From the NCBI GenBank assembly GCA_963798485.1, contig CAWCTR010000014.1, forward strand, positions 32,001 to 96,000: a DNA stretch of 64,000 nt. Reading direction: 5' to 3'. The notes beneath the pieces are model-generated. The model saw nothing but the letters and a program-made list of their open reading frames with translations, searched no databases and was not told where the DNA came from. The translations under genes were made by a program, and so were the position numbers. Origin of the DNA: an uncultured delta proteobacterium (GTDB taxonomy: Bacteria > Desulfobacterota > Desulfomonilia > UBA1062). Positions 17,478 through 21,514 of the stretch are shown piece after piece. Numbering within the stretch: position 1 is the first letter of the stretch; each line of letters begins with the position of its first letter.

Positions 17478-17544
17478 AATATTAGGGTTACAGCTCCTAA
17501 ATCATTGACAACTCCCCAATGTGTATGCCAAAAACATCACCTGT

Positions 17545-17616
17545 GCCAGCGTAGCTCAGTGGTAGAGCAGCTGATTCGTAATCAGCAGGTCCGGGGTTCG
17601 ACCCCCCGCGCTGGCT
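17545..17616 (+). tRNA. tRNA-Thr(CGT)
   Basis: GCCAGCG acceptor stem pairs with CGCTGGC; TAGCTCAGTGGTAGAGC D arm; CTGAT-TCGTA-ATCAG around the anticodon; GGTTCGAC T loop; CCA not encoded. Confidence 0.95.
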
Positions 17617-17676
17617 TAGTATTTAAGCCAATCTATAGACAATTACACAATTCAATTTAATCTACTGGAGGTAGAG

Positions 17677-17796
17677 ATGAAGAAGCTTTTCATGCAAATT
17701 ATAGTTCTCGGCATTCTGGCTGGCGTTGGATACCTTGCTTGTAAAAAGTTTTGCAATAAGGGCAATTGTAGTTGCAGTGGCAAAAAAGAGGCTTAA
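17677..17796 (+). CDS. Small Cys-rich membrane peptide (39 aa)
   Basis: GGAGGT SD; MKKLFMQIIVLGILAGVGYLACKKFCNKGNCSCSGKKEA. Below the ORF-track cutoff. Confidence 0.6.
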   Translation: MKKLFMQIIVLGILAGVGYLACKKFCNKGNCSCSGKKEA

Positions 17797-18151
17797 AACA
17801 TAAATCGTATAAGTTGACTTTCAAATCTTAAAACCAACATATCAGTTCCCACCCTCCTCACATAAAAAATCAGGCCATTTGCTGGCCTGATAAAGAGGAG
17901 GTTCTACGGGGAATGAATCTTGAAGAACCTACTATACTCATCGGCGTAAATCGGATTTGCATGAGTATCGTTATGATCACCCAAATTCTATCGCGTTCCC
18001 CATCTCCACAGAGATCCCACCATTCAAATACGAGGGTACCGGGAGGCATCCACACGATACAGCATTAGAGAGTATATCTGCATTAAATCTTGATCATGGC
18101 CGGGCGGCGATTATATTTAGAAATATACAAAAGGAGCAAAGCGTAAAGGAT

Positions 18152-18711
18152 CACCCATTAAAAGGCCCCTGTCAATAAAAACATAGTTCACCATCGCACA
18201 TTTTTTTGCAGGTCTAACGTACAGCCAGCTTGGACCATTCCAATGATTCCTTTTCTGCGCCCTGTTTTTCGGTATTTATGGTTGCGATACGATCCGCACC
18301 AGGCACCCATCCGGCTTTAGACTGTACAATGAGAGGATGAGATTAGAGGAGTAGCCCTCTCAACCTGCACGTCCCTGACAGCATCTGCTGTCCCAGAAAA
18401 ATATCGGTTCCTTGCCATGTTCAATTGTGAGTTACACGATAAAAGGCTCTTCCGGCCACACCATAAAGACTCATGGCAAAGGCAGATCTGAACCATAGAA
18501 AGTTCCTCGCTGAATTCTTGTTTATATGAGAGGGGGAAACGGCGGAGCAACTACAAAAATGGTTCTTAGCCACCAAACACACAGTCTCGCCGCTTTCCCC
18601 TGCTCAGCAAAAGAGCATCTCTTCCTTGAACTCAACTCCATCCCTGAGGATATAGTAGCAGGCCCTGGCCAGCTTACTTGCTATGGTCTTGACCGCTACC
18701 ATCATATTAGA
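18152..18711 (-). mobile_element. IS110-family remnant: transposase C-terminus, about 450-nt 3' non-coding region and right end
   Basis: 18705-18604 reads MMVAVKTIASKLARACYYILRDGVEFKEEMLFC*, the typical IS110 C-terminus. The element ends TTGACAGGGGCCTTTTAATGGGTG with an outward-facing -35. Confidence 0.8.
18200..18603 (-). ncRNA. Putative IS110/IS1111 bridge (seek) RNA region
   Basis: Several stem/internal-loop/hairpin modules; one loop carries ATGGGTG (18310-18304), identical to the element end (18158-18152). Boundaries approximate. Confidence 0.55.
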
Positions 18712-18747
18712 CATATCATCCGAATCCGTTTGCATGAGGAGGCAATT

Positions 18748-19146
18748 GTGAAAATGCTGCATACCAAACGATTATCTTCCAACGCAATGGCTCTGCTGCT
18801 TCTCATACTATTGTTTGTTATACCCTTGCCCTCCCATGCGGCGTATGTCTACACGTATACGGGCAACCCTTTCACCGGCGGTACCTTGTCACCCCCTTGC
18901 GGAGATAATTTGATGATGCAGTTAACAGTGCAAACCCCCATTACAGCCAACTATACCGCATACATCGATGAAACTTTGTCACCCTCCGCCCTGCTGACCA
19001 TTGTTACCGGGACGGTAACTCCCTTTACCCAAACACTCTCCCTGACCAAAGTCATGATCTACGCGACAGGATCTAACGGGCAACCTACATCGTGGTACAT
19101 AGACACAGGAGGGATACCATACGGCAACGAATCCATATGGTTTTGA
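18748..19146 (+). CDS. Exported Thr-rich protein, probably truncated
   Basis: GAGGAGG SD then GTG 18748; signal peptide ending PSHA-A, then YVYTYTGNPF. Confidence 0.55.
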   Translation: MKMLHTKRLSSNAMALLLLILLFVIPLPSHAAYVYTYTGNPFTGGTLSPPCGDNLMMQLTVQTPITANYTAYIDETLSPSALLTIVTGTVTPFTQTLSLTKVMIYATGSNGQPTSWYIDTGGIPYGNESIWF

Positions 19147-19195
19147 AAAACCCAACTTAGTTCGTCGCCTATGGTAGAGGATGTTACTATGAGAG

Positions 19196-21514
19196 TTAAT
19201 GATTCTCCAATAAACTATCAAAGTATTTGGTATTCCTCAAGTTGTCTAGATCATGATCTTTTTTTAGCAGATCCCAGTTATTGAAACCTTTCTTTATCGC
19301 CTTATCTAGAAAATTTCTCGACTCTTTTAATTTGTTCTGTCTGCAGGAGATACATGCTAAATTGTAATAAATCTCTGGATTTTCAGGTGTTATGCTTAGT
19401 TCTTTCATAAAATAATCAATTGTTCTATTGTATTGCCCCTTCATTGAATAATATACAGCCAAAGAGTTTAGTATCTTCAGATCATGTGGATTGTATCTCA
19501 AGACATCTTCGAGCTTTGATATGGATGCATCAATCTTTTTCATCTGAGCCGTCAAAAGGGGAAGGTATTTTTGTGCAGTGTCAAGATCTGGTCTTAGTTT
19601 CAGAGCATCAGTATACTCCCTAACAGCATCACCAATTTGATTTACGCTCATAAGAGAATAGCCAAGATTCTGGTGAATCATAGCAAGGTCTGTATAAATG
19701 TCATCGCCCCACAAATAATTAGCTAATGGATAATTCTGGACTATCTTTATAGCATCTGAGTAAACTCCGATCGCATCATTATATTTCCTTTGGGCAAGAA
19801 GGGTATTGCCGACATGGAGCTTTCCATTAATTGCCAACCTTGCCTGCAGGGAACAAAGCGGATTTGGTTCCATCGCCTTTACAATATTTTTTGCAACTTC
19901 AAGATCACCAACCGATAAGGCAAACTTCATAATATTATAAGCCTTATAAATGCCGACCTTATATATGGATCCTGCAAAGGAAGGGGTTTGTTGAGATAAA
20001 TTTATTCTATTTGATCGGAAGATGCATGCTGAAGGCCCATAGTAAACAAGCTTCCAATCTGGAGAGGTAATGAAATATTGGAGTACTGGTGTGTCATAGG
20101 AGAGGCACCATAGATCGCAATTATATTTTTTTAATAGAACTTCTATTGTTGCTTTATCTTCACTATCTTCGAATTTATTTTCTTCATCATACCATTTAGA
20201 ATATGGGAAATATCTTGCATCAATAAATATCTTTTTGTCAGGCCATAACGACCAAAGCAAATATGATCCGCAGTAGTAATCATTACCTACGTTTTGATAT
20301 GGATAATTCATATGTATAAAGCTTGATTCTTGTTTTGGACTTATATAATCAGTGTTGAATCCGATAGCTGGAATACAATAAGTCTCATATAGAGCTCGTG
20401 TAGAAAAAAATAACAAAAGGATAATTGTAATGCTATGGATAGCAATTTTCAGTGGTTTTATTATAAATAGTTCCGAATTATCCTGAGACAACTTTTTCAT
20501 TAAGTAACTAGATGAAAAGGCAAAGATAACTGCCCAAAAATATGTTGCCCTCAAGTATTTAATGTATATGATCAGGAATGATGCATTTACCAACAGCAGT
20601 GCCCAATCAGTTCTATTTCGTCTTAATTGAGCAATCATGAGAATGATAAGTATTCCTGAAGAAACTATCATGTAATCTATGAAATGCAAAGTTAATGCTT
20701 GAGGAAAAAAGATAGACTGATATTCAGCTATGGTTATCATATGTCTTCTAATTTCTTCAGGATTAACAACTAGATTATTTAATAATTGGATTGGGTATTG
20801 CATTCCATATGGCGTTATCAACAAAGCAAGGCTACTTAATATAATTGATATAAATAGGTGCTTTCTAAATCTGGAATCGAGCTGTTCTGACGACCCCAAA
20901 AGCCAATTTAATACTTCACCTGTTAAAACCAGATCCAGGAATAAGATCCCGAAAATGAAACCGCCATGAGAGTTAACCCATATCAAAATAAGTATTGGGA
21001 ATAAATAAAATAGAGGCCAAGCTTTGTCTGGTTGGGTCTTGATTCTGAGCCAAGCCCATACCATAATCGTCATCAATAAAAATGAGAAAAGTTCGGCTTT
21101 TATACGAAGCCCAGCATAGGACATGAGTATACTAGTCAGGCCTATGAAAAATATAGATGGAAAGAAGCCAGGGTGATATTTTTTAGGATATGAAAAAGCT
21201 AGCAATATGAATACCGTGATGAACAGATACCTGAGAGCATAAAGCATCTGCAGGCCTCCTGCTTTAAAAAGCAAATAAAAGAAGATCTCAGGTATCCATG
21301 CACAATAGATAGTGGTATTTTCAGCAGGTGTCCAACTGAAGATAGAATGATCAGGTATTAGCGTATGGTTTGCCAAAAAATATCGACCATAAGCGAGATG
21401 AAACCAGATATCTCCATCAGTTATAGGTTCTGCATATCTAAGAGCAATTGTAGCAAGCACTACAATTCCAAGAAGAATAAGAAATAGTTGGGTACTATAA
21501 CGATATTTACTCAT
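19196..21514 (-). CDS. Multi-pass membrane protein, GT-C glycosyltransferase-like, with C-terminal TPRs
   Basis: DGDIWFHLAYGRY in the first loop, about 11-12 hydrophobic segments, WVNSHGGF, TPR repeats and a YYNLAC...DLDNLR tail; AT-rich. Confidence 0.7.
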   Translation of the reverse strand: MSKYRYSTQLFLILLGIVVLATIALRYAEPITDGDIWFHLAYGRYFLANHTLIPDHSIFSWTPAENTTIYCAWIPEIFFYLLFKAGGLQMLYALRYLFITVFILLAFSYPKKYHPGFFPSIFFIGLTSILMSYAGLRIKAELFSFLLMTIMVWAWLRIKTQPDKAWPLFYLFPILILIWVNSHGGFIFGILFLDLVLTGEVLNWLLGSSEQLDSRFRKHLFISIILSSLALLITPYGMQYPIQLLNNLVVNPEEIRRHMITIAEYQSIFFPQALTLHFIDYMIVSSGILIILMIAQLRRNRTDWALLLVNASFLIIYIKYLRATYFWAVIFAFSSSYLMKKLSQDNSELFIIKPLKIAIHSITIILLLFFSTRALYETYCIPAIGFNTDYISPKQESSFIHMNYPYQNVGNDYYCGSYLLWSLWPDKKIFIDARYFPYSKWYDEENKFEDSEDKATIEVLLKKYNCDLWCLSYDTPVLQYFITSPDWKLVYYGPSACIFRSNRINLSQQTPSFAGSIYKVGIYKAYNIMKFALSVGDLEVAKNIVKAMEPNPLCSLQARLAINGKLHVGNTLLAQRKYNDAIGVYSDAIKIVQNYPLANYLWGDDIYTDLAMIHQNLGYSLMSVNQIGDAVREYTDALKLRPDLDTAQKYLPLLTAQMKKIDASISKLEDVLRYNPHDLKILNSLAVYYSMKGQYNRTIDYFMKELSITPENPEIYYNLACISCRQNKLKESRNFLDKAIKKGFNNWDLLKKDHDLDNLRNTKYFDSLLENH

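Follow-up and report, generated by a model that had tools for sequence, protein, structure and literature searches.

In the accessible part of PMC11187229, elements of the IS1111 group are described by subterminal inverted repeats of 7-17 bp, a longer non-coding region downstream of the transposase gene and a transposase of 330-350 aa. The reported seekRNAs are of 82-96 nt in the short form and 148-172 nt in the long form, respectively (accessible sections of PMC13604230), and many IS1111 RNAs with the donor-binding bases in a multi-loop structure were presented in the portion of PMC11208160 that is available. For IS621, dinucleotide handshake guides were reported to read the partner after strand exchange (PMC11208160 and PMC13626964, both available in part). 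The locus described here is very likely a dead copy, truncated at its 5' end, of an IS110-family element of the IS1111 type, in which the whole 3' non-coding region and the right end were kept.

The relic was localized to positions 18703-18152 of the window (the whole stretch of DNA that was analysed, 64,000 nucleotides in length) on the minus strand. Its 552 nt, with 89-92% nucleotide identity to five intact copies in the same genome, contain the 3' end of the transposase gene (last 33 codons), the entire 3' non-coding region and the right end. A first-pass annotation of the same DNA had given its span as 18152..18711; the boundary at 18152 was confirmed, the homology was found to start at 18703 instead of 18711, and all of the motifs quoted in that annotation were located on the minus strand where it had placed them. 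The features of the relic and of its right flank are as follows.

18604..18703, minus strand: transposase remnant, last 33 codons (..MVAVKTIASKLARACYYILRDGVEFKEEMLFC) and stop codon TGA (18606-18604), with 89-92% identity to the 3' end of the five intact 341-aa genes
18533..18600, minus strand: module 1, stem GGGGAAAGCGGCGAG (18600-18586) / CTCCGCCGTTTCCCC (18547-18533), from stem covariation and the covariance model R1
18585-18573, minus strand: predicted right-target guide of module 1, 5' loop strand
18572-18560, minus strand: inner hairpin TGG..CCA of module 1, between the loop strands
18559-18550, minus strand: predicted left-target guide, core and 2 nt of module 1, 3' loop strand
18410..18482, minus strand: module 2, stem CCTTTGCCATGAGTC (18482-18468) / GAACATGGCAAGG (18422-18410), the stem covarying
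18467-18458 and 18444-18435, minus strand: loop strands of module 2, flanking the hairpin at 18457-18445 (inner GGC..GCC)
18401-18393, minus strand: junction motif UUUUCUGG, an anchor in 48/49 elements
18392-18377, minus strand: junction hairpin GACAGCA/TGCTGTC, covarying, and then AGGG
18331..18361, minus strand: variable hairpin GAGAGG...CCTCTC, read from the sequence
18263..18314, minus strand: module 3, predicted donor loop, with short closing pairs and a GATGGGTG-type anchor in 47/49 elements
18311-18302, minus strand: 5' loop strand GATGGGTGCC of module 3, predicted right-end guide, core and 2 nt
18301-18279, minus strand: hairpin of module 3, GGUG-stem-bulge-CACC, in most of 33 single folds
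18278-18263, minus strand: 3' loop strand of module 3, holding a conserved GAAAA motif
18152..18262, minus strand: right-end tail, with TTGACA (18175-18170), GCCTTTTA (18166-18159) and the terminus ATGGGTG (18158-18152)
18130..18151, minus strand: right flank of the relic, half of the usual target site (ATCCTTTACGCTTTG..), from the alignment with ten close copies and their flanks

No Pfam match was obtained for the 52-aa ORF of the relic, and the assignment to the IS110 family was done by its nucleotide identity to the intact siblings. The protein of one of these (L002) matched PF02371 (Transposase_20, E 3.5e-16) and PF01548 (DEDD_Tnp_IS110, E 3.2e-9), and thereby the designation as an IS110 relic in the first-pass annotation was borne out. 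The five intact copies, of ~1,557 bp (1.56 kb) each and with an open 341-aa transposase gene in each, fall into two subtypes with ~87% likeness (L002/L003 and L004/L005/L006, respectively). They start with ATAATCATC-TAAAAGGC and finish with GCCTTTTA-ATGGGTG, and the 8-bp subterminal inverted repeats, TAAAAGGC on the left (bases 10-17) and GCCTTTTA on the right (8-15 from the end), were present in 5/5 of them; the relic retains the right repeat alone. Non-coding DNA of the intact copies amounts to 74-83 nt upstream versus 458-459 nt downstream of the transposase gene. The subterminal repeats, the long region downstream and the 341-aa transposase are as described for the IS1111 group. At the IS1111 motif GL-P----S(T)G of the C-terminal domain, the protein reads CVPTGRLSNGKSKG by eye, i.e. 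P-x4-S, then N and then G. The ISEc11 transposase was the only named relative compared, with ~28% identity over 62% of the query protein. Based on these features, and by features rather than by a tree, the relic is placed as an IS110-family element with IS1111-group features. The flanks of the intact copies are conserved (..GATAACG-TG on the left and CCA.. on the right), the insertion being at a specific site, and the predicted circle junction of an intact copy reads TTGACA-17 nt-GATAAT; both features are also given for the IS1111 group (PMC11187229 and PMC11208160).

For the comparison with relatives, a genome scan was performed in which 599 stretches were matched, 569 were confirmed as relatives and 80 were kept, and further relatives were taken from the host's own family. 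Their transposases are 49-63% identical, relatives of this kind being common, and the sources include Desulfobacterales, Nitrospirota, Acidobacteriota and other groups. The right end was located by a conserved motif in 49 of the 89 elements examined, and the length and anchor counts cover those 49. The non-coding region downstream of the gene was 368-667 nt in these relatives, so that the ~455 nt of the relic represents the family norm; the region had been described as unusually long, and this description was not upheld for a length of 455-458 nt at mid-range of the clade. The module order was fixed across the 49 elements, with GAUGGGUG (47/49) as an internal anchor in addition to UUUUCUGG, and the features of the right-end tail were conserved in all relatives with the end located.

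The single-sequence fold of the 455-nt region was not significant (MFE z = -1.54, 8/100 shuffles folding at least as well). Since the whole-region MAFFT alignment of the 49 non-coding regions was spoiled by insertions, the alignments were cut at the conserved anchors instead. In the anchored alignment of 36 sequences, 96.1% of the cells were paired in the outer stem of module 1, 97.2% in the outer stem of module 2 and 88.8% in the hairpin after UUUUCUGG, with 9/10, 9/11 and 6/8 pairs changed on both sides, respectively. The covariation score was reached by 0/500 shuffles for each of the three stems, and slid controls scored much lower. With a covariance model built from module 1 (R1), a full-length match just past the stop codon was obtained in 87/96 sources (E up to 6e-5), and the score of the relic (55.6 bits, E 9e-13) was similar to those of the intact siblings (55.4-61.3 bits). 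Conserved structure, which had been proposed as a check in the first-pass annotation, was therefore found as three stems covarying across 36 sequences. At the position of the variable hairpin, the relatives carry hairpins of very different length and sequence. The module 3 hairpin also differs in length among the relatives, and single folds were therefore used for it rather than RNAalifold; many different stem sequences were observed in the 33 folds, and the closing stem of this module is merely 2-4 bp with little variation.

In 23/23 elements with both flanks known, the dinucleotide preceding UG in the module 1 loop was identical to that preceding the TG core (positions -3 and -4). When the 3' strand of module 1 was compared with the left flank in 42 elements, 4.48 of 6 positions matched, versus 2.09 with shuffled flanks; for the 5' strand (reverse-complemented) and the right flank, the corresponding values were 4.83/6 and 3.05/6. 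A value as high was reached in 0/5000 permutations in either case; these counts overstate independence because the elements are related to one another, and the base-for-base identity is the real evidence. The covariation of loop sequences with insertion sites, proposed earlier as a further check, was thus observed for both strands of module 1. After UG, the loop reads AU or GU, the same as the first two bases of the left end. Module 1 is therefore identified by these matches as the target-binding loop, in which the 3' strand corresponds to the left flank, the TG core and the first two left-end bases. Two strands that pair with opposite strands of the left and right flanks were found in this loop for the family. 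Such pairing was not found for the relic's own right flank, and its left flank is lost. The left-target guide of this genome's own copies fits poorly (5-6/10 positions).

The loop AUGGGUG of module 3 is identical to the element terminus ATGGGTG, which had earlier been taken as a visible donor guide. This reading held, since the loop differs where the right end differs: the L088 group combines GATGGATG with AAATGGATG, and L040 combines GATAGGTG with CAATAGGT. For nine distinct pairs of loop and right-end junction (81 positions), 72 matches, 5 wobble-compatible positions (wobble meaning pairing with the bottom strand) and 4 mismatches were recorded, and three of the four true mismatches fall at junctions with the end probably mis-set. 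The base after GUG was the first right-flank base in 21/22. On this evidence module 3 is the predicted donor loop, with its 5' strand corresponding to the right end, TG and the first right-flank bases, and the last TG of the terminus is probably the core. The same-sense strands of modules 1 and 3 read across the post-insertion junctions, because each includes the core and partner bases. The two bases after the core in both modules may be equivalent to the IS621 handshake dinucleotides, as they appear to behave like them, with mismatches that are mostly wobble-compatible. By the covariation and the guide matches, the bridge-RNA-like region noted after the stop codon can be regarded as a bridge/seekRNA-coding region.

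In none of the modules did a conserved strand match the left end (ATAATCATC), whether by complementarity or by identity, and a search by k-mers against the circle junction, by the 3' strand of module 3 and by the linker between modules 1 and 2 gave short non-conserved matches only. A GAAA(U/A)AAC-type motif is conserved in the 3' strand of this module. Recognition of the left end may depend on the GAAAUAAC-type strand conserved in module 3, or on the protein via the subterminal repeats. The missing left-end guide sharpens the question of how IS1111-type elements recognise their ends. At the other terminus, tandem duplication was observed in some relatives, i.e. two copies of TTGACAGGAGCCTTTTAATGGGTG 44 nt apart in L060:2923-2993 and the last ~14 nt repeated at the right ends of L132 and L129.

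The layout of module 2 is that of module 1 (stem, loop strand, short hairpin and nine bases ending in UG), and R1 gave marginal partial matches to module 2 in relatives (E 0.026-0.38). The base 5' of its UG was the same as the base 5' of the target core in 38/42 elements, the exceptions being L058, L072, L090 and L100, and it tracks two switches within clades (L088 versus L096/L097/L101, and L033 versus its siblings). Where modules 1 and 2 differ, the flank agrees with module 1 by 13 to 0 at position -4, 3 to 0 at -3 and 11 to 5 at -5. Module 2 is therefore read as an old duplicate of the target loop that probably keeps the core-proximal match only and would provide no separate specificity. 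Its assignment as a donor loop was rejected, as no match to either end of the element was seen in its strands and the variable base tracks the target. In the relic and subtype A, module 2 contains GCCTTTTA (18447-18440, minus strand), the 8-mer of the right subterminal repeat, followed by a left-flank-like TCGTG; this copy is probably due to chance, because neither subtype B nor the more distant relatives have it.

Downstream of the stop codon, six relatives have a tandem pair of complete target loops, each a full-length R1 match (L071:2508-2764, L072:1286-1541, L080:1028-1288, L120:2506-2700, L079:2132-2327 and L135:2513-2756). Their guides were read in L071 and L072 only, and the two loops differ in each. 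L072 occupies a site that agrees with its second loop (TAAGATGTG), and its first loop (CAAGACTTG) agrees with left flanks at which other elements are inserted; one tandem-loop element could thus hold two target specificities. If both loops are used, this would be a natural recombinase RNA with more than one target, with a bearing on the design of multiplexed bridge editing. The earlier suggestion of extra guides was thus supported in part: module 2 is like a target loop and tandem target loops occur in six relatives, but module 2 itself adds no specificity.

[quoted passage not shown] It is a tentative and on balance doubtful extension of this scheme that the bridge RNA of the clade is ~350 nt or more in length with three or more guide-bearing loops, that module 2 co-reads core-adjacent bases, that module duplication represents ongoing gain of guides, and that orphan RNA regions loaded by sibling recombinases redirect or dampen insertion.

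The stems of the relic are intact in all modules. Seventeen private changes were counted at sites invariant in six sibling lineages, the lineages themselves having 2-13 each. Eleven of the 17 fall close together at 18271-18290, on the hairpin of module 3 and its 3' strand, where the hairpin still forms in a new register, and two lie in the left-target guide, in which 18552 G>A turns the core-pairing UG into UA. The same G-to-A change at the core is present in L134, whose transposase frame is open and near full length, and appears to be present in L098 as well, so the change in the relic is not callable as disabling. The right-target guide of the relic (reverse complement CCAAACACAC) mismatches its own right flank. 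The evidence for decay of the relic is mixed; an inert leftover is its most likely state. The statement that the RNA region has outlived its transposase and might act in trans was not supported in that form. Partners do exist, as five intact transposase genes in the genome, and the search for an intact transposase elsewhere in the genome, which had been proposed as a check, was thereby answered; no RNA of the relic was seen in the sequencing runs compared.

Of the other explanations, the one that survives best, though unlikely, is that the orphan RNA is still made (e.g. by read-through from the upstream 772-aa gene on the same strand), is loaded by the 92%-identical sibling transposases and acts in trans as a guide or competitor. 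The five intact genes would supply the protein; no damage is seen in the module 1 and module 2 stems, in the junction hairpin or in the donor strand GATGGGTGCC, and the R1 score is like those of the siblings; the minus strand showed no terminator-like site from 19196 (the upstream gene) to 18703; and, according to the available part of PMC11187229, a published seekRNA was supplied in trans and was not confined to closely related transposases. Against this, no promoter-like site was found on the minus strand at 17900-19400, the right-target guide is unfit for the relic's own flank, 18552 G>A alters the base that pairs with the core G, and 11/17 private changes are concentrated in module 3. Twenty sequencing runs contain small shares of the stretch, and contigs of four of them were compared with the window. 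The RNA-library contigs over the stretch, all from one metatranscriptome and with DNA carry-over possible, derive from another, intact relative at ~95% identity and continue into its transposase gene and a different flank; they carry no evidence on expression of the relic, nor on RNA ends, strand or protein binding.

As to the extent of the inert copy, the 70 nt past 18703 have no resemblance to any left junction, and the DNA on the left of the relic (18704-19195) is single-copy in the genome; because of both, the relic is interpreted as a plain 5' truncation. Unrelated DNA would have taken the place of the left end and of ~1,000 bp of the transposase gene. The left flank was also considered as a degenerate left target or left end, and this was rejected, the local alignment scores being inside the shuffled range. 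On the other side, the right flank of the relic aligns with the right flanks of the siblings (..ACGCTTTG) and is without the CC after the core, which was present in 9/9 readable sibling right junctions (ten close copies were aligned, one with its contig ending directly after CCA).

Several further observations were made around the relic. An ORF on the plus strand (18757-19146), with a signal-peptide-like start (MLHTKRLSSNAMALLLLILLFVIPLPSHA..), fills the DNA that replaces the 5' part of the element, and its listed 206-aa frame extends back into the relic, probably spuriously. Directly after the 772-aa gene, a dispersed repeat (AGGCGACGAACTAAGTTGGG..), located next to copy L006 as well, has a copy at 19170-19105 (minus strand) that holds a target-like stretch, GGATTCGT-TG-CCGTATGG, resembling an unoccupied site; at L004, an intact element lies ~65 nt beyond a gene paralogous to the 772-aa gene. 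No empty paralogous target sites spanning both halves were found, the flanks being part of dispersed repeats. A tRNA gene (17545-17616, plus strand; Rfam RF00005, 70.8 bits) lies 535 nt past the right end of the relic, and cmscan against Rfam over 17500-19300 (E up to 1) gave this tRNA and a chance match to MIR408 (17.1 bits versus a gathering score of 64) only.

A wrong join inside a repeated element of the draft genome (32 contigs), by which the truncation would be an assembly artefact, is very improbable. The draft state with 6.96% estimated contamination and the break inside a repeat family are in its favour, as is the result that none of the compared public contigs had 31 or more letters on both sides of 18703/18704. 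However, a collapsed repeat is excluded by the 8-11% difference between the 552 nt of the relic and each of the other copies in the genome; two DNA runs, which may be of the source sample, have error-free contigs crossing 18703/18704 with short sides of 11 and 18 letters, respectively; and other 5'-deleted remnants keeping the right end occur in this genome and in relatives.

Among the other remnants in the genome, those at G000:C10:122523-122601 and G000:C22:18515-18562 (L007 and L008) are reduced to the final 79 and 48 nt of the right end, respectively, and adjoin an intact left flank (GAAGATAACGTG.. and GAAGATTACGTG.., respectively) and a normal right flank; they resemble internal deletions, possibly from aberrant excision, in which the TG of the left flank is joined to a TG inside the element. 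A 66-nt internal fragment is located at C8:181037-181102, and further transposase-less remnants keeping the right end were found in the relatives G002, G007 and G011. In L069:3023-3320, an intact element is nested in the 3' end of a sibling transposase gene, with the frame G-Y-L|A-K-S-N-K-L-A-R spanning the insertion, and the orphan left downstream consists of ~27 codons and modules 1 and 2, ending after UUUUCUGG. Nested insertion is one route to relics like the copy in the window. That part of the long non-coding region is a separate passenger module like ssr9 in ISPpu9, moving or persisting without the transposase gene, is the least probable explanation: transposase-less remnants with the right end do recur (the relic, C10, C22 and the C8 fragment; G002, G007 and G011) and ISPpu9 circles containing the small-RNA gene alone are reported in the accessible text of PMC12288879, but there is no internal left-end copy and there are no end boxes between the modules, the order of the modules is the same across the 49 elements and the remnants differ in length rather than forming a discrete unit.

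With the plain 5' truncation of an IS1111-type element as the preferred reading, the family can be compared with the described systems; what appears to be new is the loop layout at the level of the family, the locus itself being regarded as an ordinary dead copy. As in the IS1111 elements with seekRNAs (ISEc11, ISPa11 and ISKpn4; PMC11187229 and PMC11208160, in the parts available), the non-coding region is downstream of a ~340-aa DEDD transposase and the inverted repeats are subterminal. The loop just after the gene and its order, the top-strand match 5' of the bottom-strand match and the two meeting at the insertion point, are also as reported for IS1111 seekRNAs (PMC11187229, available part), and the junction promoter that circularisation would form is shared with the IS1111 group. 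The non-coding region of the relic is longer than the 148-172-nt long seekRNAs (PMC13604230, accessible sections), than the non-coding region of ISEc11 (~267 nt) and than the 150-250 nt stated for the bridge RNAs of IS621 and the IS110 family. Unlike in the reported seekRNAs, ~290 nt separate the target loop from the predicted donor loop, and this interval holds another target-like loop, the conserved junction and the variable hairpin. The ISEc11 region has none of the conserved motifs of the family, and its transposase is ~28% identical.

The likeness to IS621 lies in the internal loops, of which two would carry guides for both strands with the core included, and in the left guides, which pair with the bottom strand. 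In contrast to IS621, in which the RNA is in the left end with a stated length of 150-250 nt, a CT core and two loops, the family has the RNA in the right end and a putative TG core; the guide order in the target loop is also reversed, and the right-donor guide was not found. ISPpu9 of Pseudomonas putida (PMC12288879, accessible text) is similar as an IS110-family element with a palindromic-repeat target, RNA-coding DNA downstream of the transposase gene and partial copies elsewhere. Its extra RNA is separable and dispensable for transposition according to the same text, whereas the modules of the present family are in a fixed order and appear to carry guides. Neither a second target-like loop nor tandem target loops were found to be described in the available parts of the IS1111 bridge RNA/seekRNA literature; similar loops may be contained in the supplements of PMC11187229 and PMC11208160. 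The layout proposed for the family therefore consists of a target loop, its degenerate twin, a conserved junction and a distant donor loop that would read the product junctions, with tandem full target loops in some relatives. Taken as a whole, this natural bridge-RNA layout appears larger and more modular than the two-loop examples from IS621 and ISEc11 that are being engineered.
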